Positions 10,328 through 64,000 of a stretch of DNA of 64,000 nt are shown piece after piece. The notes beneath the pieces are model-generated. The model saw nothing but the letters and a program-made list of their open reading frames with translations, was not told the DNA's origin and did no database searches. Made by a program: the position numbers and the translations under genes. This DNA comes from Methanofastidiosum sp. (GTDB lineage: Archaea > Methanobacteriota_B > Thermococci > Methanofastidiosales > Methanofastidiosaceae): positions 2,210-66,209 of the forward strand of contig JBDKUY010000005.1 of NCBI GenBank assembly GCA_039679445.1, read 5' to 3'. How positions within the stretch are numbered: position 1 is the first letter of the stretch; every line of letters starts with the position of its first letter.

Positions 10328-11972
10328 ATTCAATGATTTTTCTTTTTATTACCCTGATGCTGTCACACCCGCCCTCGATAAAATCAATGTCAGGATAGGT
10401 GAGGGCGAGTTCCTTGTCATAACGGGCCCTTCTGGTGGTGGGAAGTCAACATTTTTGAGGGCGATAAACGGTCTTATCCCAAATTTTTACGGCGGGAAAA
10501 TAAGTGGAGATGTACTAGTCCAAGGTAAGAATGCTTCTGAGACCCCGACAAACGAGATGTCAGAGCTCGTAGGGATGGTATTCCAAGACCCTGAAAACCA
10601 ACTCATATCGAATCAAGTCGAGAGGGAGATAGCCTTTGGCATGGAAAATCTCTGCTTCTCACAAGAGCTTATGAGAAAGAGGGTAGAGGAGGCGCTTGAC
10701 GCAGTAAACATTTCAAGGCTAAGAAACAGGACAACTTCAGAGCTTTCAGGCGGCCAGAAGCAAAAAGTTGCAATAGCATCTGCTCTGGCAATGCATCCAA
10801 GTATACTCTTGCTCGATGAGCCCACATCAGAGCTTGACCCAAGAAGCGCCGAAGATGTTCTAAACGTTATAGAAAAGATTAACGATGAGCTGGGCCTTAC
10901 AATACTGCTTGTTGAGCACAGATTAGAGCGAGTCATCCACCATGTAGACCGGATGTTAATGATCGATGGCGGCAAGCTGATCTATGACGGGAGCCCCAGA
11001 AAAATAAAATCAGCGCACATAGAGAACTGGAAAGTCGGGCTTCCCCCAGTGACAAGGCTATCGCTTCACTTCAAGGACAAAATAGCAAACAACGGGATAC
11101 CCCTCACTGTAAAGGAAGCTAGGCTTGCCCTAAAGGATGTCTTGAGTAATCCAAAGAAAAATATCGCTTGGGAGAGGAAAAATAGCTCCGGGAAAGTTTC
11201 AATTTCCTTGGAGAAAGTTTTCTTTTCATATGACGGCGAAAAGGACGTTTTGAAAAATATTTCATTTAAAGTTTACGAGGGGGATATGATTGCCCTTATG
11301 GGAAAGAATGCGAGCGGCAAAACTACACTTGTAAAGCTTATGAACGGTCTTGTAAAGCAGAGGAAGGGGAAGATAGAGCTCTTTGGCAAAAAGATTAATG
11401 ATTACTCGTTAGATGAGCTCATCCAAAAAGTTGGCATAGTATTTCAGGATCCTAACTTGCACCTTTTCAACGACACAGTCCAAGAGGAAGTTGCATTTGT
11501 ATTAAGGAATCTGGGTATGGAAAAAGAACAGATAGATAAGAAAGTAGAGGAGATACTCAGGCGATTTAAGATATACCAGTACAGAAACAGCTACCCACAT
11601 GATCTGTCTGGAGGGGAGCGGCAGAGGGTCGCACTTGCCTCAGTTCTAGTTTCGGAGCCGGAGATACTGATACTAGATGAGCCTACAAGGGGCATGGACT
11701 ATTTTCTAAAAAAAGAGCTGATTTCTTACCTAAAAGAAAAGGCCAAGACCGTTATCATGGTAACGCATGATGTTGAAACTGCGGCAGAATTTGCAGACAG
11801 AGTTGTCCTACTAAGTGAAGGCAACATCATTTCTGATGGCAATAAAAGAGATGTACTATCAAAGGCACTGCTCTTCTCTCCGCAAATTAATAGATTGGTG
11901 CAGCCCTACACTAAATATGGCATACCTGACGATACCTTGACAGTTGAGGAAGTATTAAAGGTGGTTGAATAA
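10320..11972 (+). CDS. ecfA: ECF transporter fused double ATPase (EcfA-EcfA')
   Basis: Two ABC domains: GPSGGGKST/LSGGQ/DEPT and GKNASGKTT/LSGGE/DEPT. Confidence 0.93.
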   Translation: MIKFNDFSFYYPDAVTPALDKINVRIGEGEFLVITGPSGGGKSTFLRAINGLIPNFYGGKISGDVLVQGKNASETPTNEMSELVGMVFQDPENQLISNQVEREIAFGMENLCFSQELMRKRVEEALDAVNISRLRNRTTSELSGGQKQKVAIASALAMHPSILLLDEPTSELDPRSAEDVLNVIEKINDELGLTILLVEHRLERVIHHVDRMLMIDGGKLIYDGSPRKIKSAHIENWKVGLPPVTRLSLHFKDKIANNGIPLTVKEARLALKDVLSNPKKNIAWERKNSSGKVSISLEKVFFSYDGEKDVLKNISFKVYEGDMIALMGKNASGKTTLVKLMNGLVKQRKGKIELFGKKINDYSLDELIQKVGIVFQDPNLHLFNDTVQEEVAFVLRNLGMEKEQIDKKVEEILRRFKIYQYRNSYPHDLSGGERQRVALASVLVSEPEILILDEPTRGMDYFLKKELISYLKEKAKTVIMVTHDVETAAEFADRVVLLSEGNIISDGNKRDVLSKALLFSPQINRLVQPYTKYGIPDDTLTVEEVLKVVE

Positions 11973-12664
11973 AACTAAGTGACTTATTCCCCTTAATCGT
12001 TGTGGCAATAGCTATACTCCTTTTCGGCGGAGGCTTAGTATTTGATGAGTCTAGGACAATAGTTAAGCTCTGGCCATATGAGATAATAGGTATTTTTGTC
12101 CTTGTGATATTTTCTTTTGTATACCAGTTTGAAAGAAAAGAATTCAGCACAAAGCAGCTTACGCTTATAGCGATGCTTTCTGGGATATCGGCAGTCTTAA
12201 GAATCCCATTTTCTAATTTTCAAGGGATACAGCCTTGCACCACGCTCATCATATGCTCTGGTCTTGTCTATGGTCCGATTGCAGGGTTTTTTGTGGGGGC
12301 TTTGACGCCATTTGTCTCAAACTTTTTTTTAGGCCACGGGCCGTGGACACCCTTACAGATGATAGGCTGGGGGCTTCCAGGGCTCGCAGCAGGTTACCTC
12401 GGTAAAAAAGATATAAACTTTAAATTCATTATTGTATTTGCAATTGCTTGGGGATTTCTCTACGGCTGGATAATGAATATTTGGCACTTTGCCTTTTTTG
12501 TGAAACCACATACATTTGAAACTTTTATTAGGACTTATGTTCTTAGTATTGCGTGGGATGTGAGCCATGCATTTGGCAACGGATTATTCATGGCAATAAT
12601 AGGTGAAAGGACAATTAAGATTCTAACAAGATACAAGAAAAGATTTACAATTGAAAGAATGTAG
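11969..12664 (+). CDS. cbrT: ECF S component, CbrT-like (cobalamin)
   Basis: IAML..LRIPF..IQPCT..GFFVGAL..VSNFFLGHGPWTPLQM..WDVSHAFGN; probable ATA start at 11969 (ORF track uses GTG 12002). Confidence 0.8.
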   Translation: MKLSDLFPLIVVAIAILLFGGGLVFDESRTIVKLWPYEIIGIFVLVIFSFVYQFERKEFSTKQLTLIAMLSGISAVLRIPFSNFQGIQPCTTLIICSGLVYGPIAGFFVGALTPFVSNFFLGHGPWTPLQMIGWGLPGLAAGYLGKKDINFKFIIVFAIAWGFLYGWIMNIWHFAFFVKPHTFETFIRTYVLSIAWDVSHAFGNGLFMAIIGERTIKILTRYKKRFTIERM

Positions 12665-12799
12665 TTATTCTTTATGTTGGATGGTCTTACTTTTGCAGAA
12701 GTGGCAAATGTGATCTTTCACAGGATAAAGGTAACATTTGCACTTGGGGCAATATTCCCTGACATCTTTGGGGAAATTTATAATGACTTTATTCTTCAA
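12665..12799 (-). CDS. 44-aa Cys4 zinc-finger micro-protein (MKNKVIINFPKDVREYCPKCKCYLYPVKDHICHFCKSKTIQHKE)
   Basis: Manual translation; TTG start after GAGGT; CPKC and CHFC knuckles; overlaps the stop of the upstream micro-ORF. Confidence 0.65.
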   Translation of the reverse strand: MKNKVIINFPKDVREYCPKCKCYLYPVKDHICHFCKSKTIQHKE

Positions 12800-12908
12800 T
12801 TATAACTACCTCTAGGGTCTCGCTATTTGCGATTGCAGTAATGATTGATATCAATTTATTAGCTTTTTCATTATTCAAATCTTTCTTTGATATTTCAATC
12901 CACAACAT
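12789..12908 (-). CDS. 39-aa micro-protein (MLWIEISKKDLNNEKANKLISIITAIANSETLEVVIIEE)
   Basis: Manual translation; ATG overlaps the end of the upstream ORF and its stop overlaps the next start, suggesting translational coupling. Confidence 0.5.
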   Translation of the reverse strand: MLWIEISKKDLNNEKANKLISIITAIANSETLEVVIIEE

Positions 12909-13038
12909 AGACGCTCTCTCTTTTCGAGTAGTTATTATTTGATTCTAATTGGGAAATATATCTTTCATAGCATTCTTCGCAGATTATGTAAATATCCTTT
13001 TCTAATTCACATTTACAAATAATGCATTTATTGTTCAT
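12895..13038 (-). CDS. 47-aa Cys4 zinc-finger micro-protein (MNNKCIICKCELEKDIYIICEECYERYISQ...)
   Basis: CIIC and CEEC knuckles; ATG 13038 lies about 25 nt downstream of TATA, so probably leaderless. Confidence 0.65.
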   Translation of the reverse strand: MNNKCIICKCELEKDIYIICEECYERYISQLESNNNYSKRESVYVVD

Positions 13039-13060
13039 ATGGATGGTGTCGCCATCCATA
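13038..13060. promoter_or_regulatory. Operator copy C: TATGGATGG-TGTCG-CCATCCATA
   Basis: 22/23 identical to copy A; between minus-strand TATA (TTTATATA, 13069-13062) and the micro-protein ATG. Confidence 0.75.
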
Positions 13061-13158
13061 ATATATAAATATTTCTGTAACTTCGACGTAAAATGCAGAA
13101 AATCAGTCATGGGGAAAAGTTTATAAATTCCCTAAAATATTCACTTCTTATTAGGTAA

Positions 13159-13233
13159 GCCGCGGTCGCCTAGCCTGGGAGGGCGCCAGACTGAAGATCT
13201 GGTATTCCGCTGGTTCAAATCCGGCCCGCGGCA
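13159..13233 (+). tRNA. tRNA-Phe (GAA)
   Basis: Acceptor GCCGCGG/CCGCGGC-A, anticodon arm CCAGA-CTGAAGA-TCTGG, T loop TTCAAAT; CCA not encoded. Confidence 0.96.
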
Positions 13234-13310
13234 CTTTAAACTTTTTTAAATATTACATTCAAATCGTTCATTTTATATTCCTTGTTTTCCTTTTCATTAT
13301 TGGTGTTATA

Positions 13311-13634
13311 ATGAAAGATGGCGTATTTTACGGAAAAGGAGTAAACAAAATAAAAAATGAATATCCTGAGATATACGAAGCTATAGTAAAACTTGACGAA
13401 GCAGTTTTCACTGGAAAAGTCTTAGATTATAGAACCCAGAAATTAGTTGCACTTGGAATAACAGCAGCTAGAGCAGATGAAAGCGCAACAAAAAGACAGA
13501 TTATGTCAGGTATGAATGAATTTAATATAACAAAGGACGAGATAGTTGATGTCTTAAGAGTCGTCCTCTTAACTTCAGGCATGCCTGCATTTAACAAAGG
13601 GATGAGAATCTTAGATGAGATAGAAAAACAATAA
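13311..13634 (+). CDS. Carboxymuconolactone decarboxylase (CMD/AhpD-like) family protein
   Basis: LDYRTQKLVALGITAA..ITKDEIVDVL..SGMPA. Confidence 0.8.
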   Translation: MKDGVFYGKGVNKIKNEYPEIYEAIVKLDEAVFTGKVLDYRTQKLVALGITAARADESATKRQIMSGMNEFNITKDEIVDVLRVVLLTSGMPAFNKGMRILDEIEKQ

Positions 13635-13716
13635 TTTTCTACCTTTACTTTTTATTAATCTTAATTCTTATATATAGCAAACTCAATCTATGCCTTAGAG
13701 CCAAGAGAGTGTTTAG

Positions 13717-14127
13717 ATGAAAGACGTTGAAATAAAGTGCCCGCATTGCGACAAGAAGATTATAATACCTGAGAGCCTTCTAGTAAAAATTATAGAAAAA
13801 TACCAACATGATAACGCAGGAGAAAAGAAATCTGAAATGTTCGCCCCAGTAGATCAGACTCAAGAAACTTCGGCCACCAAAGAACTAGAAAATGAGCTTA
13901 CCGTAAAGGAGGAGCAGCTAGCAGAGGTGATGTCAAAGCTTGAAAGAAACCAGGCTGATTTTACAAGGGTCGTTAAGAGGAACGTGAAACCTGAGGATAT
14001 GTACCGGATACAGAAGGATAGGACAATTCTTATGCAGAAGGCAAAGAACCTCCAAGAAGAAATAGCTGCAATAAATAATCAACTTGGCAAACAAAATAAT
14101 AAATCAAGTAAGGTAAAATATCTTTAA
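13717..14127 (+). CDS. Hypothetical protein with CPHC knuckle and coiled coil
   Basis: ORF with heptad-rich C-terminus. Confidence 0.6.
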   Translation: MKDVEIKCPHCDKKIIIPESLLVKIIEKYQHDNAGEKKSEMFAPVDQTQETSATKELENELTVKEEQLAEVMSKLERNQADFTRVVKRNVKPEDMYRIQKDRTILMQKAKNLQEEIAAINNQLGKQNNKSSKVKYL

Positions 14128-14789
14128 TCTTTTAAGCCATATATCTCAACATCAGACCTATCAAAACCTTTATCAAAAATATCGATATATTTGATAATAT
14201 CTTCAAAATGATTTCTTATTTTGGTATTTTCTTCACCATATGGATAGTATGCAAAGAAAAGAAAGTTCTTAGTTTTCTCTGTGATCATTGTCCTTCTATC
14301 TAGCCCAAACAATACACTTGATATTATGTCAAATCCATCTTCTGATACAATATCTTCTGGCTTTAACTTCATCTCTTTTCCGCTGATGTTCACATACTCT
14401 TCGTTGCCTTTTGTTATCTTTGTACTCAAGCTGCCCTTGATTAGGTCAAGGTCATGGCCGGCTGTAAGATACATATTCTTTAGCTCAGCCATAAACATCG
14501 CCTCAACAACAGTATACTGTGAAGGGAAACTCTTGCCACTGGCTATCGATTTAATCTGGTATTCAATCGGGTACTTCTTTTCAAATTTCTTAAAGAACAG
14601 GCTATATTTTTTTATAGTCTTAGATTCTAGGTAATCTTTAGCATTATTTCGGATATCTGCTTCAATCCTTCTCTTTTCCTTCTCTAGGGATTCATCAACT
14701 TTTTTATTTTCTAAATTTCTAACTTCCATCGTAGAAACTTTTAGATCGGGAAAATAATCCGCCAAATTCTTTGAAACATCTACCTTCAT
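14124..14789 (-). CDS. Stand-alone B3/B4 (PheRS beta editing-like) domain protein
   Basis: VVEAMFMAELKNMYLTAGHDLD..EEY..ISG..DIV..IISSVLFG.DRRT.ITEKT. Confidence 0.72.
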   Translation of the reverse strand: MKVDVSKNLADYFPDLKVSTMEVRNLENKKVDESLEKEKRRIEADIRNNAKDYLESKTIKKYSLFFKKFEKKYPIEYQIKSIASGKSFPSQYTVVEAMFMAELKNMYLTAGHDLDLIKGSLSTKITKGNEEYVNISGKEMKLKPEDIVSEDGFDIISSVLFGLDRRTMITEKTKNFLFFAYYPYGEENTKIRNHFEDIIKYIDIFDKGFDRSDVEIYGLKD

Positions 14790-14881
14790 GATTATATTTT
14801 TCTAGATCGATTTAAATTTTTATTGAAAGGATGGACAGTAAAGATTTTAAAGTTTGTCCTCTCTAATTATATGGGGATAAA

Positions 14882-15190
14882 ATGATCTGTAAAAATTGTG
14901 GCAAGGAGATAGAAGACACTGCGAAATTCTGCCCAGAGTGCGGCTCTTCAACGGCAAAGAGGGATGAATTTTACGTGGATTCTGATCATCTGGTAGAGGA
15001 GATAAAGAAGATTATCGATGAGGGGATTGCAACAAGAATTATTATAAAAGATGAGGCCGATAAAACGCTTCTAGATATTCCTTTAGCAGCAGGTGTCGTG
15101 GGAGCATTGATTGCCCCATGGCTTGCAGCTCTTGGTGCAATAGCTGCGCTTGTTGTAAAATGCAAGATAGTTGTAGAGAAACCAAATTAA
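14882..15190 (+). CDS. Zinc-ribbon plus DUF4342 protein
   Basis: CKNCG..AKFCPECG; IKKIIDEG..RIIIK..LDIPL..GVVG..AALGAIAAL..CKIVVE. Confidence 0.8.
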   Translation: MICKNCGKEIEDTAKFCPECGSSTAKRDEFYVDSDHLVEEIKKIIDEGIATRIIIKDEADKTLLDIPLAAGVVGALIAPWLAALGAIAALVVKCKIVVEKPN

Positions 15191-15254
15191 ATTTTTATTT
15201 TTTATTCTAGTAAACTATTTAAATTAACTAGTTTTTAAACGATAGGTGAGAAAA

Positions 15255-16001: not shown

Positions 16002-16006
16002 ATCCT

Positions 16007-16366: not shown

Positions 16367-17602
16367 TTACTGCCATTTTTCCAATGCTTTTCTTAGCTCC
16401 ATGTGGGTCTTTGCATATTCTTGCAGCGATACCCCTTCCATTACGGCATCGACTGCTTGCCTCATAGCAGTTGCACCTTTTATTGTTCCATCGGGGTGCC
16501 CGTGGATTCCGCCACCGGCTTGTATTATGGTGTCATCTCCCATAAATTGTACTATCTCGGGTATATGGCCAGGGTGAAGCCCTCCGGAGTTTACTGGAAA
16601 ACATGGATTCATGCCAAAAAGGTCAGATACAATCTTCTCCTTATTTTTCAGTACTTCAGTCAATTCCCCTTCCATCTTCCCAACTACAGTCCCTATGTGT
16701 AGTTGATCAATTCCCGATAGCCTTGAAAGAAGGGATAACACCGGCATAGAAATACCGTGCCGCTCGTACCTTGTCATTGCAGCATGCATCGCCCGGTGTC
16801 CATGAATTATCATCTTAAATCCCTGGTCTCTTATTTCCTGGACTTTTGAAAATCCAGCAACTAGGATGTCTACCATTATGCAAGCACCACCATGGTCTTT
16901 TACAAACTGCGCCCTCTCCGTCATATTCACCCCAGTTATGTTTGGGGCGTAGAGCTTCTTTTCTCCAGTTTCACTCTCGGCCCTGTCAAGGGCATCTAGG
17001 ACTTTTATGACTCTATCTTCAAAAGGGCAGAATCTCTGATTTGTGAGATTTTCATCGTCCTTTACAAAATCGCATCCCCCATACCACGACTCGTATGAGA
17101 GGGTGGCAGTATCCTCTGGATTTAGTCCAACTTTTGGCTTAACAATAGTTCCGACATGAGGCCTCCCAGTCTTATAGGTCTTCATGTATTTTCTGACGCC
17201 TTCAATCCCAAACTCCGGGCCTTTGAAAGTCTTGATGTATCTATATGGGATCTCGATATCAAATAGTCTTGCTTTAGGTATTATCTTCATACCGAGGATG
17301 TTCCCTGAAATATCGGAGAGAATTTGAGGGACTGAATTATCTTCAAACAGCTCTATCGGGTATGCAACTTTGATATGCGCAGCTTTATTCCCTTCAATTT
17401 CAAATAATTCTTTTGCATAAAAAACAAAAGCTGATAGGCTAGAGGTATACCCTTTATCAGTTTTTAGTGGGGTCCAGGTGCCGTTGGAAGATTCCTTTGC
17501 AAGCTCACCCGCATTTTTCAGGATATCATCTGTTTCAATGTAGAAATCTGCGATCAAATAGTTGTCTTTATCGATGTCCTCTCCAAGTTTTACAAAATCC
17601 AT
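16367..17602 (-). CDS. rbcL: Form III RuBisCO large subunit
   Basis: ESSNGTW, SGN, KPKVGL, DFVKDDE, HRAMH, HIGT, GKMEG, SGGLHP, AGGG; catalytic residues appear intact. Confidence 0.92.
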   Translation of the reverse strand: MDFVKLGEDIDKDNYLIADFYIETDDILKNAGELAKESSNGTWTPLKTDKGYTSSLSAFVFYAKELFEIEGNKAAHIKVAYPIELFEDNSVPQILSDISGNILGMKIIPKARLFDIEIPYRYIKTFKGPEFGIEGVRKYMKTYKTGRPHVGTIVKPKVGLNPEDTATLSYESWYGGCDFVKDDENLTNQRFCPFEDRVIKVLDALDRAESETGEKKLYAPNITGVNMTERAQFVKDHGGACIMVDILVAGFSKVQEIRDQGFKMIIHGHRAMHAAMTRYERHGISMPVLSLLSRLSGIDQLHIGTVVGKMEGELTEVLKNKEKIVSDLFGMNPCFPVNSGGLHPGHIPEIVQFMGDDTIIQAGGGIHGHPDGTIKGATAMRQAVDAVMEGVSLQEYAKTHMELRKALEKWQ

Positions 17603-17694
17603 CTAATCACCTTACTAATTAAGAAAAGAATCTATTTAAATTTAAGGGATTTAAGTGGTAAATAAGAAATTAAATTAAGAATAGTTTACAGAAA

Positions 17695-31251: not shown

Positions 31252-31659
31252 CTATATGCCTCCATGCCAAAATACATTGTCTTCCATATACTCTTTCTTA
31301 AATATCGGTACTTCCTCTTTTAGTCTTTCAAGAATATATTTACAAGCTTCAAATGATTTTGTCCTATCAATCGACTTGACTATTATTAAGACTATATTAT
31401 CCCCAACAAAAAGTTCCCCATATCTGTGAATAATTGAACTTTCTATAATATCGTATTTTTTCGTTGCATCGACCTCAATTTCCCTTAATTTTTTTTCAGC
31501 CATTTCAGCGTAAGCGTCAAGTTTCATTTTCTTGACTTTTTTTCCATGCATTTCCGATTTAACTGATCCCAGAAATATAACTGAAGCTCCACACTTATCA
31601 TTTTTTATTTTTTTTAATTCATAATCAATACTGAAATCTTCTTTTTGGAGTCTAATCGT
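31252..31659 (-). CDS. moaE: Molybdopterin synthase catalytic subunit (non-canonical start, ACG 31659 or ATT 31656)
   Basis: [17 protein letters not shown]; frame extends 36 codons upstream of the ORF-track ATG as [23 protein letters not shown], the MoaE N-terminus. Confidence 0.85.
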
Positions 31660-31661
31660 AT

Positions 31662-31901
31662 CTAACCACCACTTGAAGGCATCATAATGGCAACTTCGTC
31701 ACCATCTTTTAATAGGATGTCAGTTTTGATATACTCTTGATTTAGAGCTATTACAATATTCACATTATCTTTAAAATTGTATTTTTTCATAATTATTTCT
31801 AAAAGGTCCTTTGTTGTTTTACCCTTTTCTATTTGAATAGATTCTTGGGTCTTACCCGTTAACTCTTTGAAAGATGCAAAATACTTCACAAGAATTTTCA
31901 T
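31662..31901 (-). CDS. moaD: Molybdopterin sulfur carrier MoaD
   Basis: VKYFA..LKDGDEVAI.PSSGG C-terminal diglycine. Confidence 0.93.
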   Translation of the reverse strand: MKILVKYFASFKELTGKTQESIQIEKGKTTKDLLEIIMKKYNFKDNVNIVIALNQEYIKTDILLKDGDEVAIMMPSSGG

Positions 31902-35887: not shown

Positions 35888-36907
35888 TTATTCTATCATT
35901 TCTACGTATTTCTTCAATTGCTCCGGGATATTTCCTGAACCAAGCGCAGGAACTGTGGGTGGCTGCCCCATGTCTCTGAAAATCTTCTGTCCGTTTTCAT
36001 TTATAACCTGTTCGACGTATTTAATTCCTAAATCTTTGTTAACTGCATTCTTTGGTACAGTAATACCATATGCTATTGGTGCTGCTGTTTGGACAGTTCC
36101 ATTTGATATTTTTACCTTAACTTTAGCGTATGTTTCCTCATACCTTACATCTTTTAGATTAATTGAAGGAGGTAGTTCAACATATTTTAATTTGTTCTGT
36201 TCGGCAACTGATCTATACTCAAAGGCATAATCAATTCCGCCGGCAATTGTCATAGAAACTAAATCTTCAGATTTATCTCGGATAGTAACATATTTTGTGT
36301 CTGGATTCAATGCTTCCGGAGTTGTTATTGTGTAAACGCCATTTTCTTCTTTAATCGTAATTGCGGTATGTGCAGCAAGTAAGTTATCAAATACTGGTTT
36401 GTTGTAAGCGAGATCTGCTAGTTTTATAGTCATAACAGTTCTGTAACCACAAGGGTCAATATTTGGACTTCCAAATGCCCATAGAACATCAGGTTTTTGT
36501 AATACCTCATACCAGTTGTCTGCATTAATCTCATCTGCATATTTACTCTTATCTGTGTAACAAAGCACTATTTCATTTGTGGCAAAAACAATGTACCAGT
36601 CAGCATAGTCTGGATACATCATTTGGGGTATGAGTCTGTAATCGGCCGAACCGATAACATCCGCCTGTTTTCCAAGCTCAGTGACTTTTCTGATAGTGTC
36701 TACGCTACCTGATGCTTCTAATTGTACATCAGTATTTTTATTTGCAGCTTCAAAGTTTTTTTCAACAGCTTGGAATGGCTGGGCCAAACTTCCAGCGTGG
36801 AATACACTTACAGTTTTAGGCTCAGTAGTGCAACCAGCTGTTAACGCTACCATTATTCCAATTAAGAATAATGCCGATATTTTAAGATATGTTTTTCTTT
36901 TATTAAT
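35888..36907 (-). CDS. wtpA: Tungstate/molybdate-binding lipoprotein (probable ATT start)
   Basis: HAGSL, GS, SADY, DPCGYR, FEYRS; lipobox LTAGC; signal peptide extends to ATT 36907 after RBS GAGGTGA. Confidence 0.9.
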   Translation of the reverse strand: MNKRKTYLKISALFLIGIMVALTAGCTTEPKTVSVFHAGSLAQPFQAVEKNFEAANKNTDVQLEASGSVDTIRKVTELGKQADVIGSADYRLIPQMMYPDYADWYIVFATNEIVLCYTDKSKYADEINADNWYEVLQKPDVLWAFGSPNIDPCGYRTVMTIKLADLAYNKPVFDNLLAAHTAITIKEENGVYTITTPEALNPDTKYVTIRDKSEDLVSMTIAGGIDYAFEYRSVAEQNKLKYVELPPSINLKDVRYEETYAKVKVKISNGTVQTAAPIAYGITVPKNAVNKDLGIKYVEQVINENGQKIFRDMGQPPTVPALGSGNIPEQLKKYVEMIE

Positions 36908-39759: not shown

Positions 39760-39775
39760 ATGATTTCAAAATCAT
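39760..39775. promoter_or_regulatory. 7-2-7 palindrome ATGATTT-CA-AAATCAT
   Basis: Directly downstream of TATA (TTTATAA) and upstream of the RBS of the ABC binding protein gene. Confidence 0.4.
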
Positions 39776-39787
39776 ATCGGTGATATA

Positions 39788-40144
39788 TTGAAAAAAATAA
39801 TACCTTTTTGTGTATGTTCTCTATTAGTGTTGTCAATGTTCGCTGGATGCATTGGACAGGGTACAGATGCCAAAACAGAAACAACAGAGGAAACGAGAAC
39901 AATAGTTGATATGGCCGGAAGAACTGTAGCTATTCCAAAAAATATTGAGAGAGTTGCTATTTTCGGTGGACCAATCGGACAAGTTCCGCATATATTGGGC
40001 GTTGAAGACAAACTATGTGCAGTATCTAAGGGGCATCAAAGATCAGATTTACTTGCAGCAATGGATCCAAGAATAATGACCCTACCTGCGCCAAGAAGTA
40101 CAATTGGAATTGGGTCTGTTTGGATGTGCTATAGACTATTTTGA
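39788..40144 (+). pseudogene. Truncated iron-siderophore/cobalamin-type ABC binding lipoprotein
   Basis: Lipobox FAGC, RTIVDMAGRTVAIP..IERV; ends at 118 aa versus roughly 300 or more expected. Confidence 0.7.
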
Positions 40145-40445
40145 GCCACAGCAAACAACTGTTCATGTAGGTGAATTTATTACAGTAGTTGCAATTGATG
40201 ACGGGGGATGTATTAATCCTACATGTATATCTATATTTGAAGAGGATTGCTCTACCCCTCCAGACAAGGTCATTTTAGTTAATTCAAAATGTGAAGGCAA
40301 TACACTTACAGTAACATACAGAGCAGTTAAACAAGGAACTGTTAAATTCAATTATATCACATGCAGCAAAGAAGTAACAATACTTCCAAAACCATATCCA
40401 ATGTTCTCTTTTATGAAAATACTTGGATTAGAAAAATCCGATTAA
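40104..40445 (+). CDS. 3' portion of a small Cys-containing exported-type protein (probably 5'-truncated)
   Basis: Beta-rich body with C-terminal PKPYPMFSFMKILGLEKSD; no convincing RBS or start. Confidence 0.45.
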   Translation: MELGLFGCAIDYFEPQQTTVHVGEFITVVAIDDGGCINPTCISIFEEDCSTPPDKVILVNSKCEGNTLTVTYRAVKQGTVKFNYITCSKEVTILPKPYPMFSFMKILGLEKSD

Positions 40446-40463: not shown

Positions 40464-41483
40464 TTAAATAAATAAGGATGCATATAGTACCATAAATACT
40501 ATGAAAGTTCCGACAACTGAACCCAAATGGAGTTGCGTTGGTGTTATCCTGTTCTTTTCCCTCAATTCATTTAAGACAAATTGCATCCCCGGTAGCGACA
40601 GAGTCAATCCCCATGAGAGATATCTAAAGTTTGCAGTATTCATGTTTGCTTTCTGTTGTTCTTCTTTTGATTTAATAAGCTCATCCTTTAAATCTTTGAT
40701 ATCCCAAGTCAATTCTTCATTTTGAACTTTGTAGCTTTCAACTGATCTTTGCATTTCAATTATATTTTCTGTCAGCTTTACATTCTCTTGAGTCAATTTA
40801 GTAATCTCATTTTTTAGAGAATCTATCGAACCACCATAATCTTCTTCTAAAGAAAAAACAGAATAGAAATTCTTGTCTAATCCAGATAGGACTGTTGAAT
40901 AAAAGAATCTTCCTCCTTGGAGTCTCCAACCCGAAGAGTCAAATGGTTTATATCCGCTTGGCAGTGTTATCTTAATTGTAGCTAGATCGTCTGGGCCTAG
41001 GTCTGAGGAAATTAAAAAATCGAATGAGTTTAAGGTACTTGGAGCGAGATTAAAAATGGACTGAGTATTAATAACATAGATTATATTAAATTGGTAATCT
41101 GAGAGTCCCTTTTTTCCTTCAGGATCTATTGTAAATTTAGTGTTAGTTGAACTTTCATCAAAAGTAACATCTAATTTGGTCCATGATGAATTGGAGTCTT
41201 TATAGCTTAGGTCTATGCCAGTTATCATATTTTTTGGAATACTGTTCTCAAAAGTTAGATTACCTTGTGCATCTGAAAATATTATTTGATGGGTTAGATA
41301 TGTGTACTGCTGGTCTATATTAACATCTGTCAAAATATTCATTTGTAAGGAAGGATCTATATCTGCTACATCTGATGTAACGCCAAACGAATAAAGAAAA
41401 CTTTCAGCTTTAACATCGGATTGATTAATTAAAAATGCCCCCAGTATGAATAATAACGCATAAATTCTAATTTTTCTTGACAT
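40464..41483 (-). CDS. Exported protein: signal peptide, beta-rich ectodomain, coiled coil, two C-terminal TM helices
   Basis: Paralog of the adjacent upstream gene. Confidence 0.75.
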   Translation of the reverse strand: MSRKIRIYALLFILGAFLINQSDVKAESFLYSFGVTSDVADIDPSLQMNILTDVNIDQQYTYLTHQIIFSDAQGNLTFENSIPKNMITGIDLSYKDSNSSWTKLDVTFDESSTNTKFTIDPEGKKGLSDYQFNIIYVINTQSIFNLAPSTLNSFDFLISSDLGPDDLATIKITLPSGYKPFDSSGWRLQGGRFFYSTVLSGLDKNFYSVFSLEEDYGGSIDSLKNEITKLTQENVKLTENIIEMQRSVESYKVQNEELTWDIKDLKDELIKSKEEQQKANMNTANFRYLSWGLTLSLPGMQFVLNELREKNRITPTQLHLGSVVGTFIVFMVLYASLFI

Positions 41484-41565: not shown

Positions 41566-42588
41566 CTAAGTTATGAATAATATATACAATATCAAGAAAA
41601 CTACAAATGTTCCAACAACTGAACTTATCAGCATCTGTGTTGAAGTGATTACTGATTTTGTCCTAAGTTCAGCAAAGAAAAGCAGTAATATTGGGAGTAA
41701 TATTGTAAGCCCCCATGAGAACTGCCAGAAGTTGTTTGAAATTCTATCGGATACTTTTCTTTCTTCTTCAGCTTTTAGAAGCCTCTCGGTAAGATTTTCT
41801 ATTTCCGATGAGAGATTTTGATTTTCTACCTTGTAACTATCGACACTTTTCTGGAGTTCCGAAATTGTTTCTAGTAACTTTGAATTATCCTGTCTTAGAC
41901 TAGATATTTCTTGTTTTAAAGATTCTAATGAGTCAGAATAATCATTATCTGTGTTGAAGATGGTATAAAAACTTCCTGAAGTCTTGGAAATCTGTGCAGA
42001 ATAAACGAACCTTTCCCCCTCTACTCTCCAACCAGAATTGTTAAGGGGTTTATACCCTTTGGGTAAGGCCAAATTTATACTTGATATATCAGCTTCACTC
42101 ATCTTTGTTATTAAAAAATATTCAAATGATAGAAGCGTATTAGGTTTAAGAGTATAAATTGAAGACGTATTTAATTTGTAATTTAATATAAAGTGGTAAC
42201 CATCGCTACCTTTTATTTCTACAGTATCCAGTGAAAATCTAGCGTTTGACACTTCTGGATCCAAAGTAATTGCTACTTCATTCCAGCTAGAATTAGCATC
42301 TTGGTACATAAGTTGAATCTGAGTTATAATTGATTTAGGGATTGAAGTATTAAATACAAGAGTTTGGGGGGCTTCTGACAAATATATTTGATTATTAATA
42401 GTTGTATCTTGGTCTGATATATCCACATCAGATAATATCTCGATTTTGCCAAAAGGCACCATATTCGGTGATTTGGGTGCAATGTCAAAAGAATATACAA
42501 ATCCTTCGGCATCTGCTCTAGGCATACTGATTATTAATGAGCCTAATATCAGACATAATATAAAAACTATTGATTTATTATGCGTAAT
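41566..42588 (-). CDS. Paralog of 40464-41483 (probable ATT start)
   Basis: Shared YSF, LP.GYKP..SGWR..G.RF.YS and SWGLT; signal peptide encoded upstream of ATG 42525. Confidence 0.75.
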   Translation of the reverse strand: MTHNKSIVFILCLILGSLIISMPRADAEGFVYSFDIAPKSPNMVPFGKIEILSDVDISDQDTTINNQIYLSEAPQTLVFNTSIPKSIITQIQLMYQDANSSWNEVAITLDPEVSNARFSLDTVEIKGSDGYHFILNYKLNTSSIYTLKPNTLLSFEYFLITKMSEADISSINLALPKGYKPLNNSGWRVEGERFVYSAQISKTSGSFYTIFNTDNDYSDSLESLKQEISSLRQDNSKLLETISELQKSVDSYKVENQNLSSEIENLTERLLKAEEERKVSDRISNNFWQFSWGLTILLPILLLFFAELRTKSVITSTQMLISSVVGTFVVFLILYILFIT

Positions 42589-49839: not shown

Positions 49840-51060
49840 TTGGGACAAGCTGAAGTAAATATAGGTCTTGTAGGGCATGTCGATCATGGTAAAACTACTT
49901 TGACACGGGCTCTATCTGGAGTTTGGACAGACAAACACAGCGAAGAGCTTAGAAGAGGTATTACAATAAGATTAGGTTATGCAGATATAGAGTTCAGAAA
50001 ATGTGAAACATGCGAAGGGATAGAGGCCTATACTACTGAAAAAACTTGCCCTAAATGTGGTGGAGAATCTAAAGTTTTAAGAAAAGTCTCCTTTGTCGAT
50101 GCACCAGGTCATGAAACCTTAATGGCAACAATGCTTTCAGGCGCCGCAATCATGGACGGGGCCATATTGGTGATTGCAGCAAATGAGAAATGTCCACAAC
50201 CACAGACAAGAGAACATCTAATGGCCTTAAATATTGTAGGAATTAAGAATATTGTTATTGCACAGAATAAAATAGAGCTTGTTTCTAAGGAAAAAGCAAT
50301 TGAAAATTATAATCAGATAAAGAATTTTATTAAAGGAACTGTAGCTGAAAATGCTCCAATTATCCCTATATCTGCTCAGCACAGGGTAAATATTGACTAC
50401 TTGATAAAATCAATTGAAGATGTAATAAAAACTCCAAAAAGAGATTCAAATAAACCACCAATAATGTACATTGCAAGATCTTTTGATACAAACAGACCTG
50501 GCACATTCCCAGAGGACCTAAAAGGTGGAATCTTAGGGGGGTCACTTATTCAAGGTAAGCTAAAAGTTGGGGATAAAATAGAAATAAGGCCCGGCTTTGA
50601 AAAAGTTGAACAGAATAAGAAAGTCTTCAAGCCAATATTAACTGAAGTATCCAGCTTAAATGTTAGCAACGAAGCAGTCGAAGAGGCATTACCCGGGGGG
50701 CTTCTTGGTGTTGGAACTTTCCTAGACCCTGCAGTTACAAAGTCAGATACCCTAGCAGGAAGTATATTGGGGCATCCTGGGGAGTTGCCAAAAGTTTGGG
50801 AAAATTTAACTCTTGAAATAAATCTCCTTGAGAGAGTTGTTGGTACAGAGGATGAAATTGAAGTTGATCCTATAAGGCCTAAAGAAATGCTTTTGTTAAA
50901 TGTCGGGACAGCTAAAACAATAGGCACAACAACAAAGGTCGGGAAAGTCACAGAATTGATATTAAAACTTCCAGTTTGTTCTTTAGTTGGTGAAAGGGTA
51001 GCCATAAGTAGAAGGGTCGGGGCCAGATGGAGACTAATAGGCTACGGAATAATAAAATAG
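49840..51060 (+). CDS. eif2g: Translation initiation factor 2 gamma
   Basis: [35 protein letters not shown]; TTG start. Confidence 0.97.
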
Positions 51061-56562: not shown

Positions 56563-56567
56563 AAATA

Positions 56568-58568: not shown

Positions 58569-58653
58569 TGATTACCGGAAACTACTTTTAAATCTTTCTA
58601 TTGACATTTCTGCAAGTCGAATAACATTTATATAACAAATTAAGTTATTTTTA

Positions 58654-59084: not shown

Positions 59085-59161
59085 GATGTTTCACAAATAT
59101 TTAATATTTTTAAAAGTCAATACTTTTATATATAATTAAATAAAGTTGGTGCTGTGATATA

Positions 59162-60694
59162 ATGAAACTCCATTTAAATGCCGAGTATCTCCTGAGCAAA
59201 CCACTAACAGGGGACGGAGTTCAAAAAGTAAAGAAGTATCTTGCTGAAGAAACTAAGGAATTATTAACTAAAGGGGTACCTAAAGACAAACTTTCAGAAT
59301 CTCCAAAAATAATTGACTCAAATATATCAAATGACACAATCTTAATTACTATTGAAAGTGGCACATATGTTAGATCACATGCAGTTGCCATAAGACTAAA
59401 GAACGCTCTGTCTTTACTTCTTGGAAAGGAGTTTAAAGTTGGGATTAAAAAAGTTGTGGCAAAAAGTTATACTCTCACACTCGAACTTGAAAAAATTCCA
59501 AAAGATCCCATTAAGATACCTTTTGTCGATAAAATATCTATCGAAGGCGCCAATGCAATTTTATCTTTAAAGAATTTGGATGAAGATTTCCTTACTAAAA
59601 ATCATGTTGACCGTATCATTAATTTGTTTTATGAAAAAGTTGAAACCCAGTTTTGGGGCGGCAAGGGTGAGCACTGGGAATTGATTTCAAAGAGTGAAAG
59701 CATAGAACCTTTGACTACAAAAGACCCAACACTAGAATTATTGGCTTTAGGATGGCTAAAACAAGGGCCAAGTCAAGGCCAATGGTTTTATCATGCCCCA
59801 GTTGCAGCACTGCTTCGGACAATGGAAAGAATCGCAGTTGAAGAAGTTTTAAAGCCATTAGGATTCATTGAAGTCATTGCTCCGAAACTTGTTCCTTTTG
59901 AAATTTGGGAAAAGACAGGCCATTTATCTGGCAGTGAACCAGAAATTTATTATGTTTCCCCCCCTATTTCTAGGGATGTTTCTGTATGGGAAGAAGTAAT
60001 TGACCTATACAAAATAACAAAAAAGGCCTATGTTGATAAGATAAGAGAAAGGATGAGAGACCCCATAGGCGGAATGACATATGCGCAGTGCCCTCCAATG
60101 TACTGGGCTTTTGATGGAAAGACTATTGATGATTCAGAATTTCCAGTATTAATCTATGATAAAAGTGGCCCCTCTTATAGGTGGGAAGCCGGTGGGAGAC
60201 AAGGTATAGAACGAGTAAATGAATTCTGGAGGATAGAACCTGTATTTATTGGATATCCAGACCAGTTAATTGGACTTAAAGAGAAGATGATGGAAAGATA
60301 TGCCTATGTCTTCGATAAAATATTCGAGATTGAATGGAGAACAGCGTGGGTAACACCTTTTTATATGGCACAGTCAGGACAGACAGGAATTGAAAAAGAA
60401 ACTGAGAGAATTAAGGGGACTGTGGATTATGAATCCTGGATTCCTTCAAGGGGCAGTAGAGAAGAGAGTGAATGGCTGGAATTCCAGAATCTTTCTATAG
60501 TTGGGGATAAGTATACTAAAGCTTTCTCCATTAAATCTTCAAAAAACAAGGAGTTGTGGTCTGGCTGTTCCGGGATAGGGCTTCAAAGGTGGACAGTATC
60601 TTTCTTGGCCCAAAAGGGACTTGATTCCGACAAATGGCCTAAAGAATTCAAAAAATATTTAGGAGAATTCCCAAAAAATATCAAGTTTGTTTAA
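59162..60694 (+). CDS. serS: Methanogen-type (type 2) seryl-tRNA synthetase
   Basis: Large N-terminal domain with IESG.YVRSH; YAQCPP, SGPSYRWEAGG, ERVNEFWRIE, WLEFQN, WSGCSGIG. Confidence 0.9.
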   Translation: MKLHLNAEYLLSKPLTGDGVQKVKKYLAEETKELLTKGVPKDKLSESPKIIDSNISNDTILITIESGTYVRSHAVAIRLKNALSLLLGKEFKVGIKKVVAKSYTLTLELEKIPKDPIKIPFVDKISIEGANAILSLKNLDEDFLTKNHVDRIINLFYEKVETQFWGGKGEHWELISKSESIEPLTTKDPTLELLALGWLKQGPSQGQWFYHAPVAALLRTMERIAVEEVLKPLGFIEVIAPKLVPFEIWEKTGHLSGSEPEIYYVSPPISRDVSVWEEVIDLYKITKKAYVDKIRERMRDPIGGMTYAQCPPMYWAFDGKTIDDSEFPVLIYDKSGPSYRWEAGGRQGIERVNEFWRIEPVFIGYPDQLIGLKEKMMERYAYVFDKIFEIEWRTAWVTPFYMAQSGQTGIEKETERIKGTVDYESWIPSRGSREESEWLEFQNLSIVGDKYTKAFSIKSSKNKELWSGCSGIGLQRWTVSFLAQKGLDSDKWPKEFKKYLGEFPKNIKFV

Positions 60695-61862
60695 TCTCTT
60701 CTTTTTTTTCTATTTTAAGATAAATTAAAAAAACATCTATTAAGGCAAAGGCGGCAAGCATATAGAAAGCAGCCCTCCATGTCAAAACATCAGCAATATA
60801 CCCTCCAACTGAAACTGCAAAAGATCCAAAGCCAAATATACAAAGAGAACTAAATCCATAAAGCAGACCGCGTATTTTTGTACTGCCCATTGATGCGGTA
60901 AGCATATTTTGTGCAGGTTGAGCGGCGAAATATGAGAATCCCATTATAATTGAAAAAATTAAAAATATAATTGCACTTGTGGTATTAGCAATAAGAGCAA
61001 TAGAAATTGAACTAATTGCTGTGAAAGCAAGAAGCGGTTTTTTGTAACCAAGTTTGTCAGATATTTTTCCACCAAGTATTTGTCCTGGCATACCAGACAC
61101 TATCAGTATTGTTGTGATTAAACCACCTATTAAAACTTTAAGTGATAAAACGTCTTTTGCAAAAGTAGTCAATAATAGAACTGTTCCAGTGTAAAACAAT
61201 CCTCTAAACAAAAGGATTAATATGTATAATATAAAATCTTTAGAAACTAATTTTCTTGTTTCTTGTATGTAGCTATAATTGCCCCCGCCTTCTTCTTTTA
61301 CATAATCTTTGATCTTTGAATCTTTTATGGAAAAGCTCACAAACAATAATACTAATATTGGAATGCACCATAATAGGTAAGGATATTTCCATCCGATATA
61401 TACCCCAACAGCAGCAGCTATTATGGGCGAAGAAGCTTCACCCAAGTTTCCAAGTAAACCATTGAATCCCATTGCTTTACCCATATCTTTTTGATAAAGT
61501 CGGGATACAAGAGAAAGACCGGCAGGATGATAAGTCCCCGCACCGATACCTAATAATAAGAGAGAAATCCACAGAGTGAGAGGTCCTTTCGATAAATAAA
61601 TTCCTGCTATTGATACAAGAAATAGAGTTAGTCCAATTCTAATTATTTTTAAAGACCCTATCCTATCCGATATAAGGCCTGAAGGCAAGGCCAATGCACC
61701 ATACATAAGAAATGAGATAAAAGCAAAAGATGCAGTTTCAGCATTGGTAAGGCCTAAGTCCGTTCTAATCAAAGGCAGAAGAGATGCAAGAGTTAAAGTC
61801 ATTGCATGTGTAACAGTATGTGAAAAAGAAGCAAAATATAAGATTCTTTTTTTAGAAATCAT
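60681..61862 (-). CDS. MFS transporter
   Basis: About 12 TM, GLISDRIG, YHPAG, GKISDKLG. Confidence 0.9.
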   Translation of the reverse strand: MISKKRILYFASFSHTVTHAMTLTLASLLPLIRTDLGLTNAETASFAFISFLMYGALALPSGLISDRIGSLKIIRIGLTLFLVSIAGIYLSKGPLTLWISLLLLGIGAGTYHPAGLSLVSRLYQKDMGKAMGFNGLLGNLGEASSPIIAAAVGVYIGWKYPYLLWCIPILVLLFVSFSIKDSKIKDYVKEEGGGNYSYIQETRKLVSKDFILYILILLFRGLFYTGTVLLLTTFAKDVLSLKVLIGGLITTILIVSGMPGQILGGKISDKLGYKKPLLAFTAISSISIALIANTTSAIIFLIFSIIMGFSYFAAQPAQNMLTASMGSTKIRGLLYGFSSLCIFGFGSFAVSVGGYIADVLTWRAAFYMLAAFALIDVFLIYLKIEKKEEIKQT

Positions 61863-61899
61863 ATAAATTAATTAAAATAATATATTAAAAAAGTTGTGT

Positions 61900-62016
61900 T
61901 TAGCTTCTGAGTGCTGGATAATACTTCTCTTTTTTCCTCTTCTTGAAATTGACCTTCTGAGGATATGCTCCACTTTTCTTGACGCTCCTCAAAAGATTTT
62001 TGATTCTTCTCTTCAT
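61900..62016 (-). CDS. 38-aa highly basic micro-protein (MKRRIKNLLRSVKKSGAYPQKVNFKKRKKEKYYPALRS)
   Basis: Manual translation; RBS AAGGTGAG and BRE/TATA (AAAAAG-TTTTATAA, about 62064-62051) upstream. Confidence 0.6.
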   Translation of the reverse strand: MKRRIKNLLRSVKKSGAYPQKVNFKKRKKEKYYPALRS

Positions 62017-62154
62017 GAACTCACCTTTTTCTTAAAGCCTTTTCATTGCCTTATAAAACTTTTTATTAAAATATCGCGAATTAGATCATTTTATGCTCTA
62101 AGAGATATTTTCTATAATCTTAAGGCTTATAAATCTTCTTTTTATTCCTTTTTC

Positions 62155-62826
62155 ATGGGCCGAGTTTCAGTAGTTATCCCTTCATTCAACGTAGAGAGAA
62201 GCATTCATGAGGTAGTAGAAAGAATACCAAAAGATATCTTTGAAAAAATAGTTGTGGATGATGGAAGCAGAGACAGAACTGGAGAGATGGCCAAAAAAGC
62301 AGGTGCAAAAGTTGTAACTCATGATGTTAATTATGGTAAAGGGAGGGCAATGAGAACTGGAGCCTCGATAGCAAAAGGAGATATTATTGTTTTTCTTGAT
62401 GCGGATCTTCAACATAGACCAGAAGATATTTATAAACTTGTTGAGCCTATCCAAAAGGATAGGGCAGATATCACAATAGGCTCAAGATTTTTAGGAAATA
62501 CAAAGACCATGCCATTTGTTAGGAAGATATCAAACTTTATTTCAACTGCTTTGATAAGATTATTTTTTGGCATTAATATACGGGATACTCAATCGGGATA
62601 TAGGGCCATCAAGAGAGAATTTTTAGAGAAGATGCATTTAGAATCAGAAAGATACAATATAGAAACAGAAGTTTTGTCTTATGTGAGAAAGTTTCATATG
62701 AGGGTTGAAGAAGTACCGATTGAAACGATTTATGGAGATGAAAAATCTCATTTCACTGCTTTAGACATCCCAAAATTTATTTATCTGTTATTCTATCTTA
62801 AATTTCACGAAATGAGAAAGAAATAA
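62155..62826 (+). CDS. GT2 glycosyltransferase (dolichol-P sugar synthase-like)
   Basis: VVIPSFN, VVDDGS.D, GKG.A, DADLQH, GSRF, DTQSGYR; start at ATG 62155. Confidence 0.9.
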   Translation: MGRVSVVIPSFNVERSIHEVVERIPKDIFEKIVVDDGSRDRTGEMAKKAGAKVVTHDVNYGKGRAMRTGASIAKGDIIVFLDADLQHRPEDIYKLVEPIQKDRADITIGSRFLGNTKTMPFVRKISNFISTALIRLFFGINIRDTQSGYRAIKREFLEKMHLESERYNIETEVLSYVRKFHMRVEEVPIETIYGDEKSHFTALDIPKFIYLLFYLKFHEMRKK

Positions 62827-62850
62827 ATACTAATAATATAGGTGTTCGCC

Positions 62851-63807
62851 ATGGGCAATAGATTAGAGATTATAACCAGAAATGCTGAAGAAGTTGTAAC
62901 AGAAGAAGAGCTACTTGAGCTATTGAATACTAAAAATGAGCCGGTATGCTACTGTGGTTATGAAACTTCAGGTGATGTTCATCTTGGTCATCTTGTGACA
63001 ATGTCAAAATTGAAAGATATGGAGAAGGCTGGCTTTAAAGTAAAAGTTTTATTTGCAGATTGGCACACGTGGCTCAATAGAAAAGGGGACTGGGAATGGA
63101 TACACGAGCAGACCTCAATATGGGAAGAGACCTTTAAATCATTTGGATTAAAGTCCGCTGAATATGTATTGGGATCCTCTTTTGAAAGATCATTAGAGTA
63201 TATTGATGATGTATTCAATCTATCTTTAGATACAACTATTAATAGGGCCCTTAGAAGTATGCAGGTAATCGCAAGAGATATTGAACATGCAAGAGTGTCC
63301 CAGGTTCTATACCCATTCTTACAGATTGTAGATATAAAATACTTAGGAGTAGATGTGGCTATTGGAGGAATTGAGCAGAGGAAGATCCATATGCTCGGTA
63401 GAGAGCTTTCTTCAAATATAAACTATAAGTCATTTGTGTGTCTACATACCCCGCTTATTTCTTCACTGACAGGCCCTGGCGACAAAATGAGTTCTTCAAA
63501 ACCTGAAAGCATGATTTCAGTTAGGGATGAAGAACAAGCTATCAAGGAAAAAATTAATAAGGCTTATTGCCCTATGGGGGTAAAGGAGGAGAATCCTCTA
63601 CTTCAAATAGCCCGTCTTATACTCTTTCCAAAGATTACCGGTGCTTTTGAAATAAAAAGATCGGAAAAATACGGGGGCAACGTAGAGTTTGATTCATACG
63701 ACTCACTTGAAAGGGCTTACTTATCAAAGGAAGTCCATCCAATGGATTTGAAGAAATCCGTTATTGATTATCTTGTTGAAATTATAAGTGAGATAAGGTC
63801 TATATAG
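62851..63807 (+). CDS. tyrS: Tyrosyl-tRNA synthetase
   Basis: YCGYE.SG.VHLGH, ADWH, YP.LQ..DI, GG.EQRK.HM, KMSSS, HPMDLK. Confidence 0.96.
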   Translation: MGNRLEIITRNAEEVVTEEELLELLNTKNEPVCYCGYETSGDVHLGHLVTMSKLKDMEKAGFKVKVLFADWHTWLNRKGDWEWIHEQTSIWEETFKSFGLKSAEYVLGSSFERSLEYIDDVFNLSLDTTINRALRSMQVIARDIEHARVSQVLYPFLQIVDIKYLGVDVAIGGIEQRKIHMLGRELSSNINYKSFVCLHTPLISSLTGPGDKMSSSKPESMISVRDEEQAIKEKINKAYCPMGVKEENPLLQIARLILFPKITGAFEIKRSEKYGGNVEFDSYDSLERAYLSKEVHPMDLKKSVIDYLVEIISEIRSI

Positions 63808-63817
63808 GAGGGATTAT

Positions 63818-64000
63818 CTGAAATATCAACCTAGAAATACTGGTGATGAGGAACAGGTCCAGAGAACGAGAACTCCTCAAAAGGGAGAAGTATTGGGCGT
63901 TGTCGATCAGATGCTTGGTGCAGGCAGAATGAAAGTTAGGTGTACAGATGGAAAAGAGAGGATTTGCTCTGTTCCAGGGAAATTTAAGAGAAGACTGTGG
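63818..64000 (+). CDS. eif1a: Translation initiation factor aIF1A, 5' part (runs off the window; probable CTG start)
   Basis: Manual translation (L)KYQPRNTGDEEQVQRTRTPQKGEVLGVVDQMLGAGRMKVRCTDGKERICSVPGKFKRRLW. Confidence 0.9.
   Translation, partial: MKYQPRNTGDEEQVQRTRTPQKGEVLGVVDQMLGAGRMKVRCTDGKERICSVPGKFKRRLW

Follow-up and report, generated by a model that had tools for sequence, protein, structure and literature searches.

The window analysed here is a 64,000-nt stretch of a Methanofastidiosum sp. genome (contig JBDKUY010000005.1; G000:C5:2210-66209). It contains five genes that, according to the initial annotation, need a start codon other than ATG, GTG or TTG: a cbrT-like transporter gene, moaE, wtpA, a surface-protein gene and the gene for translation initiation factor aIF1A. 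Hereafter, ATG, GTG and TTG are termed canonical, and ATA, ATT, ATC, CTG and ACG near-cognate. The host genome (G000; 1.62 Mb, 35% GC, 94% complete, 78 contigs) was compared with its genus (f1, 16 relatives), three other families of the order Methanofastidiosales (f2 to f4) and one further family of the class, Thermococcaceae (f5).

The five genes and their start codons

The features on which the analysis rests, including the Shine-Dalgarno (SD) motifs, are the following.

11958..11965, plus strand: SD of the cbrT-like gene (AAGGTGGT), embedded in the 3'-terminal part of the gene for an energy-coupling factor (ECF) ATPase; kept in 13/13 aligned relatives
11969..12664, plus strand: S component of an ECF-type transporter (cbrT-like; Pfam PF12822/PF07155), proposed start ATA 11969-11971
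31252..31659, minus strand: moaE (PF02391), proposed start ACG 31659-31657
35888..36907, minus strand: wtpA, tungstate-binding protein (NF003196 above cut-off), proposed start ATT 36907-36905, SD GAGGTGA 36918-36912
40464..41483, minus strand: paralog of the surface protein with an ATG start, which served as positional reference (42% identity, ungapped one-residue N-terminal offset)
41566..42585, minus strand: surface/membrane-anchored protein, proposed start ACG 42585-42583, SD GGGGAGTG 42599-42592
49840..51060, plus strand: aIF2-gamma, TTG start, common to the congener G005; protein intact
63806..63812, plus strand: SD of aIF1A (AGGAGGG), sharing bases with the TAG stop codon of the gene for tyrosyl-tRNA synthetase (62842-63807)
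63818..64000, plus strand: aIF1A (103 aa, extending beyond the window end), proposed start CTG 63818-63820

In the cbrT-like gene (the label comes from the initial annotation, and the substrate of this S component is putative), the start region reads AAGGTGGT-TGA-ATA, with the ATA overlapping the upstream TAA stop as ATAA and the nearest downstream canonical codon at +11. Among the 13 aligned relatives (G014 gave no start alignment), 12 have ATA and one, G007, has ATG. In G004, G005 and G006, 26 codons pass without any canonical codon.

The aIF1A start lies in the context AGGAGGG-ATTAT-CTG. The frame is closed by a stop 7 codons upstream of the CTG; downstream, no canonical codon appears until a TTG 25 codons on, inside the oligonucleotide-binding (OB) fold. 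The wtpA start (GAGGTGA-TATT-ATT) is followed by its nearest canonical codon at +18, within the signal peptide; in 12 relatives the same position is occupied by TTG (5), ATG (2), ATT (2), ATC (2) or ATA (1).

For the surface protein, the context is GGGGAGTG-TAA-ATT-ACG. Seven of the 16 relatives with a match were compared (G005 gave no alignment). All 7/7 carry ATT/ATC-ACG, and in four of them no canonical codon occurs within 26 codons. The initial annotation had placed the start at ATT 42588. We moved it to ACG 42585, which is the more likely start, because this codon stands in the usual SD register and lines up with the Met of the paralog at 41483 (42% identity). With this amendment, all five genes would indeed need a near-cognate start.

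The ACG of moaE lies 2 nt past the moaD stop, in the context GGTGG-TTAGAT-ACG. Its SD (GGTGG, 31670-31666, minus strand) is within the moaD sequence, the codons for the C-terminal Gly-Gly of moaD making up the motif (window 31662-31670, minus strand). The nearest downstream canonical codon is at +36, and the Pfam MoaE match begins three residues past the ACG. This position is ATG in 13/13 relatives, and ACG was found only in G000 among the genomes compared. The same ACG is, however, present in contigs of runs X6 and X8 (two other studies; depth 2.5 and 3.2), whereas an X11 contig has ATG and the X2 contigs break at exactly that base.

Near-cognate starts across the genome and its relatives

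In G000, the distance between canonical starts and the aligned anti-SD origin peaks sharply at 13-14 nt. Upon tallying the codons at this distance across the genome, as the initial annotation had proposed, we found near-cognate codons enriched in register: at SD sites without a canonical codon they occupied 24/47 in-register versus 11/92 off-register positions (Fisher p=2e-6). After subtraction of the off-register background, the near-cognate share of strong-SD genes was ~7% in G000, ~4% in G005 and ~0 in the outgroup, a single 400-kb Thermococcaceae stretch (G035).

An unsupervised start model in which any of 61 codons was permitted ranked ATA, ATT and ACG/ATC right behind ATG, TTG and GTG, in both G000 and G005. 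Its 1074 confident calls in G000 include 31 near-cognate starts (ACG 10, ATA/ATT/ATC 21) and 143 TTG/GTG starts. The latter are thus frequent, as the initial annotation had it (aIF2-gamma at 49840 being an example with TTG), but at 143/1074 not extreme. The model was too noisy for two other genomes, G021 and G017 (19-26% non-cognate calls). All these counts are lower bounds, since the simple gene caller (1324 genes in G000; 59 inside the window, where the initial annotation counted about 80) overlooked at least cbrT and aIF1A.

Comparison with G005 gave 954 reciprocal ortholog pairs (84% identity). Of these, 913 could be aligned, and for 638 pairs a joint start was called with confidence. Canonical codons were paired in 622 of these, near-cognate codons in 9, and the two classes with each other in 7; there were 0 cases of any other codon. 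A strict lower estimate of near-cognate starts would therefore be 2% of genes, and an overall figure of about 2-7% is suggested by these sequence comparisons. Canonical starts of one genome were also taken as anchors, after removal of 66 that were gapped or of low identity; in 17 cases the partner showed no canonical codon. Eight of the 17 had a nearby alternative, and 9/9 of the others carry a near-cognate codon; for comparison, when an internal Met codon is replaced by a non-canonical one, the new codon is near-cognate in ~37% of cases.

The DNA behind these codons evolves as coding sequence. In the 16 near-cognate pairs, the segment from the start to the next canonical codon shows 60/28/176 differences by codon position, and 134 synonymous versus 82 non-synonymous changes, a pattern similar to that of ATG genes (2825:1666) but not to that of upstream DNA. 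Family models point to the same N-termini. Twenty hand-picked near-cognate candidates were scanned and 15 had a Pfam match; the models begin within ~3 residues of the proposed codon for hisF, S19e, hemB, carbamate kinase, moeB, apt, SMC and a tautomerase. The registers agree as well (hisF residue 3 = model 3; S19e 2 = 2; tautomerase Pro, residue 2 = model 2). The proposed codon is ACG for hisF and apt and ATT for S19e. The tautomerase needs Pro-1; its proposed start is ATT in G000 and its start is ATG in G005, the Pro standing directly behind as residue 2. The SD match length rises from ATG (3.9) to GTG/TTG (4.8) and near-cognate starts (5.7), the last value being partly circular.

Based on these sequence data, we consider it likely that near-cognate codons at ATG spacing behind a strong SD are real but weak starts, read through a two-of-three match by the normal initiator Met-tRNA at lower efficiency. 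The SD-anti-SD duplex would hold the 30S subunit such that a window of just 2-3 nt is presented to the P site, where two-of-three pairing with the CAU anticodon would be accepted often enough for aIF1 release. A strong SD would offset the weak codon, and output would be lower. Two classes may be distinguished: tolerated drift, in which the codon flips among ATG, TTG, ATH, ACG and CTG (wtpA, moaE, hisF), and conserved weak starts (aIF1A, S19e, cbrT and the surface protein).

Several observations weigh against this interpretation. The register test was borderline in G005 (16/36 in-register versus 19/76 off-register, p=0.05), and 15 non-cognate 'starts' among the 1074 confident calls in G000 represent model noise. 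Candidates were chosen partly by SD strength, and some are preceded by a canonical codon in frame (SMC, at -9; S19e, a GTG inside its own SD). The genomes compared are kin and hence non-independent samples. The moaE ACG may have arisen recently, as a mutation that is tolerated or slightly deleterious. Finally, S. solfataricus aIF1 rejects AUU in vitro, according to the passages available of PMC4705826, and aIF1 appears normal in Methanofastidiosum despite the proposed tolerance of near-cognate codons.

The initial annotation had also proposed a relaxed, SD-led start selection in this lineage. Near-cognate starts at the SD spacing find support across the genome (the 24/47 versus 11/92 above) and the genus; a rate special to this lineage is not established. 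In G035 there was no register enrichment (3/34 versus 6/67, p=1.0), and the near:canonical ratio in the SD test was 40:477 in the genus versus 3:124 in G035 (p=0.028). G017 had 0/8 near-cognate in-register sites with 45 canonical ones alongside, a small sample. In a test requiring homology, which has low power and scores a GTG within GGTGA as a start, we counted 6/442 for G000 and 6/398 for G005 versus 1/202 for G035 (p=0.44), with 2/150 for G021 and 0/140 and 0/44 for the others. Because the two tests disagree and the outgroup is one stretch, a rate specifically elevated in Methanofastidiosum is only modestly supported.

The competing view accepts the near-cognate starts as real and holds that most SD-using archaea have them at a comparable level of a few per cent, masked by annotation. 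It deserves serious consideration, even if we judge it rather less probable than its opposite, and it opposes the lineage claim only. The homology-required counts, including those of G021, would fit it, as would two convincing single starts outside the genus: an ATC behind GGAGGTG in G035 (L085, 17698, plus strand) and an ATA behind AGGTGA in G021, a member of f3 (L142, 15434, minus strand). In the portions available of the respective papers, near-cognate codons make up ~30% of the putative alternative starts of H. volcanii (PMC7261190), and for an Asgard tubulin the inferred start is ATT (PMC13394414). The register and SD tests in G035, and the small G017 sample, speak on the other side. Annotated switches from AUG to CUG or AUU number 3/61,358 in the accessible part of PMC5622118, a baseline bounded by annotation.

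Relaxed selection might instead be confined to genes coupled to an upstream stop, through termination-reinitiation. Three starts have suggestive positions relative to that stop (cbrT -4, moaE +2, aIF1A +10 nt), but wtpA and the surface gene have no near same-strand upstream neighbour. Moreover, the coupled fraction in G000 was 0.23 of 31 near-cognate versus 0.26 of 885 ATG genes (p=0.84), and 0.11 versus 0.29 in G005, upstream genes overlooked by the caller depressing both classes. We regard coupling as quite unlikely to be the explanation.

Similarly improbable is that start-loss mutations are involved, with a downstream canonical codon being used or the genes decaying. Many candidates do contain a canonical codon no more than 5-12 codons away; none of the 13 relatives shares the moaE ACG, and the X2 contigs break at that base, as a polymorphism would cause; and in Halobacterium nadA a mutation that arose in the laboratory turned ATG into ATA (PMC11834397, in the passages available). 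However, the core translation genes aIF1A and S19e retain the near-cognate codon across species. With a downstream start, aIF1A would lose part of its OB fold, hisF 33 codons, the tautomerase its Pro-1 and other proteins their signal peptides. The skipped segments are under purifying selection, the gene bodies are conserved approximately like those of ATG genes (0.83 versus 0.86) and the downstream canonical codons are not position-conserved. Start loss may apply to a few recent cases such as moaE.

C-to-U mRNA editing, converting ACG to AUG and CUG to UUG, would suit the frequency of ACG (10/31 confident near-cognate calls in G000), but it could not mend ATA, ATT or ATC (21/31) and the wtpA and aIF1A positions alternate between editable and non-editable codons, which makes it very improbable. 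Sequencing or assembly errors, which the initial annotation already deemed unlikely and which the 78-contig assembly might invite, are refuted at all five positions: in the relatives either the codon is retained or ATG/TTG occupies its place, four of the five sites share their codon with independent genomes, and moaE, despite ATG in X11 and 13/13 relatives, is ACG in X6 and X8.

The initiation machinery and the aIF1A start

The initial annotation proposed examining aIF1, aIF1A, aIF2 and the initiator tRNA for unusual changes or losses. Inspection of the initiator tRNA (A1:U72, three G-C pairs), the 16S 3' end with its anti-SD, the top of h44, aIF1, aIF2 alpha/beta/gamma and aIF5B revealed no lesion. 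The P-site tails of uS9, uS13 and uS19 and the residues that we take to be G1338/A1339 were present and normal by inspection. In aIF1A, the genus has the changes CRIP to CSVP and GD to GM, for which no function was found in the literature passages available.

A weak lead is the apparent absence of Nep1, the methylase of P-site position 966. It was not found in f1 (0/17) and f2 (0/6) but is present in f4 (6/7) and f5 (7/7). In E. coli, loss of RsmD raises AUA initiation 2- to 3.6-fold, according to part of PMC3643588. The lead is weak because the control archaea H. volcanii and M. acetivorans also gave no Nep1 match. Tsr3 is present throughout the order and the RsmE-family matches fell under cut-off, both being uninformative; the Nep1/Tsr3 pattern is reversed in Thermococcaceae relative to f1/f2.

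Two further observations concern the ribosome and its tRNAs. uS5, which lines the mRNA entry channel, has in G000 (C17, open reading frame (ORF) lower end 21902, minus strand) a long acidic N-terminal extension that is absent in G035 and G017. Archaea are expected to have a third CAT-anticodon tRNA; in G000 two were found, and a relaxed ARAGORN search for another returned noise. The third may be unassembled.

The start of aIF1A stands apart. It is CTG in 15/15 genomes of the genus that were fetched, out of 17, GTG (2) or TTG (4) in f2, CTG (3) or TTG (1) in f3 and ATA in 5/5 of f4, hence non-ATG in 30/30 genomes of the order, across four families. Outside this count, one f4 genome gave no match and another only a divergent, ATG-started paralog. 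Such a second aIF1A-like paralog (29% identity, ATG start) was seen at L200 and L201 (G033 and G019, f4), and in the main aIF1A of f4 the basic loop is altered (VKTKRRGK). Among 80 named loci inspected by eye, 11 of them order members already counted, the start is ATG in 27/27 Thermococcaceae and in 28/29 DPANN/unclassified (1 not visible), TTG in 9/9 Methanobacteriaceae, 2 Hadarchaeota and 1 Odin, and GTG or TTG in 1 Thermofilales.

The non-ATG start of aIF1A is, on these alignments, a separate feature conserved order-wide and not a product of the relaxation at genus level. Because four different weak codons (CTG, ATA, TTG, GTG) and no ATG occur at one position, the pattern points to selection for a weak start, against AUG. 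A negative feedback like that of bacterial infC could be its purpose, although we lean slightly against this proposal: more aIF1A would mean tighter start selection and thus less aIF1A synthesis. The suggestion derives from the analogy to infC and from the cooperation of aIF1A with aIF1; passages of PMC6237735 describe aIF1A as reinforcing the aIF1-dependent dynamics of the initiation complex.

Two points count against such feedback. The codon argument rests on kin genomes, which are not independent, and with ATG in Thermococcaceae and DPANN the feedback would not be universal. The published discriminator against non-AUG codons is aIF1, which aIF1A only reinforces; the weakly started gene here is aIF1A. 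As for aIF1, its start is ATG in f1 to f4. In f5 (L043, L047, L049, L050, L052, L056 and L057) it has an apparent GTG start and, unlike in f1 to f4, no N-terminal Cys knuckle; with its ATG-started aIF1A, f5 is the mirror image of Methanofastidiosales.

A broader model seems to us possible but doubtful. In SD-using archaea, fidelity feedback would operate via a weak-start aIF1A (Methanofastidiosales, Methanobacteriaceae, Hadarchaeota, Odin), and Methanofastidiosum would in addition have a low-stringency set point, at which ATA, ATT, ATC, CTG and ACG are routine for up to about 7% of strong-SD genes without visible fidelity-factor change.

The mis-annotation of N-termini that the initial annotation foresaw is evident in public records. 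Only 4 of the 15 listed genus members (of 53), all from NCBI, have aIF1A starting at CTG (10/488 by contig counts); the remaining listed entries are cut to 72-79 aa or lengthened to 112 aa. The CTG start of aIF1A is thus already annotated in some NCBI records. A protein search with aIF1A gave a single cluster. We found no discussion of a non-AUG aIF1A start, nor of start codons in Methanofastidiosales, in a literature search that mostly did not cover subscription journals.

Some other genes of the window deserve mention. An ATT call of the 61-codon model at 40179 was dropped, because it sits in a chimeric-looking ORF pair. This pair (39764-40445, plus strand) consists of a 118-aa N terminus resembling a lipoprotein/ABC binding protein, with an early stop, and an overlapping, unrelated-looking ORF in another frame; neither matches NCBIfam, and the pair resembles a recombined remnant. 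At 16367-17602 (minus strand) lies a type III-like RuBisCO large subunit (TIGR03326, 487.7 bits versus a 497.45 cut-off; NF003252 above cut-off), and at 59162-60694 (plus strand) a methanogen-type seryl-tRNA synthetase that scores under the curated cut-offs and is thus a divergent member.

Significance and comparison with known systems

If tens of genes, core translation genes among them, are likely started at five other codons with intact factors, the in vivo stringency of archaeal initiation is called into question. There are practical consequences too. Most public calls for the group cut off signal peptides, the catalytic Pro-1 and a quarter of aIF1A. ACG is outside the start set of NCBI table 11, and therefore even homology-aware annotation misses ACG starts.

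Reviews, in the passages available, list only AUG, GUG and UUG as archaeal starts (PMC7531240, PMC4705826). There are archaeal parallels, namely putative starts from Ribo-seq in H. volcanii, CTG-started small ORFs in M. mazei, the inferred ATT of Asgard AtubA and the NCBI records of aIF1A with CTG; in one of these cases the start was placed by a ribosome-binding site and fold completeness. These differ from the present case in having been set aside as possible false positives, in being restricted to small ORFs or in concerning single genes.

Among bacteria, the likeness is to SD-led starts such as Deinococcus dnaA (ATC) and rpsL (CTG), S. aureus cvfC1 (AUU), ccpN (AUA) and citZ (AUA), and E. 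coli pcnB (ATT), which share a strong or extended SD and N-terminal mis-annotation. Traits expected of starts of the pcnB, dnaA and ccpN type are found here at sequence level: a near-cognate codon at the SD spacing of the genome itself with no canonical codon there, positional homology with ATG in orthologs, paralogs or family models, and protein-like evolution behind the codon. Those cases amount to about four genes per genome and came from proteomics or Ribo-Ret, whereas here tens of genes (2-7%) are inferred. Unlike them, Methanofastidiosum also shows free codon swapping between species, employs ACG and has the aIF1/aIF2 machinery. As to strength, near-cognate reporters in S. aureus gave about 10-30% of AUG output, according to the accessible part of PMC13009471.

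The order-wide avoidance of ATG on aIF1A is a candidate archaeal counterpart of the autoregulation of infC and eIF1. The bacterial IF3 gene infC starts with AUU or AUA, and its codon varies between lineages (passages of PMC2830850 and PMC4705826). Both systems would thus have an initiation-factor gene with a weak non-AUG start, a strong SD and a lineage-variable codon; unlike IF3, however, aIF1A is the ortholog of IF1 and not an IF3-like proofreader, and autocontrol, proven for infC, is proposed here by analogy. Eukaryotic eIF1 is likewise encoded with a weak start and autoregulated (PMC4705826, in part), again a fidelity factor with a weak start, but there the codon is an AUG in poor Kozak context under scanning, whereas aIF1A has a non-AUG codon behind an SD.

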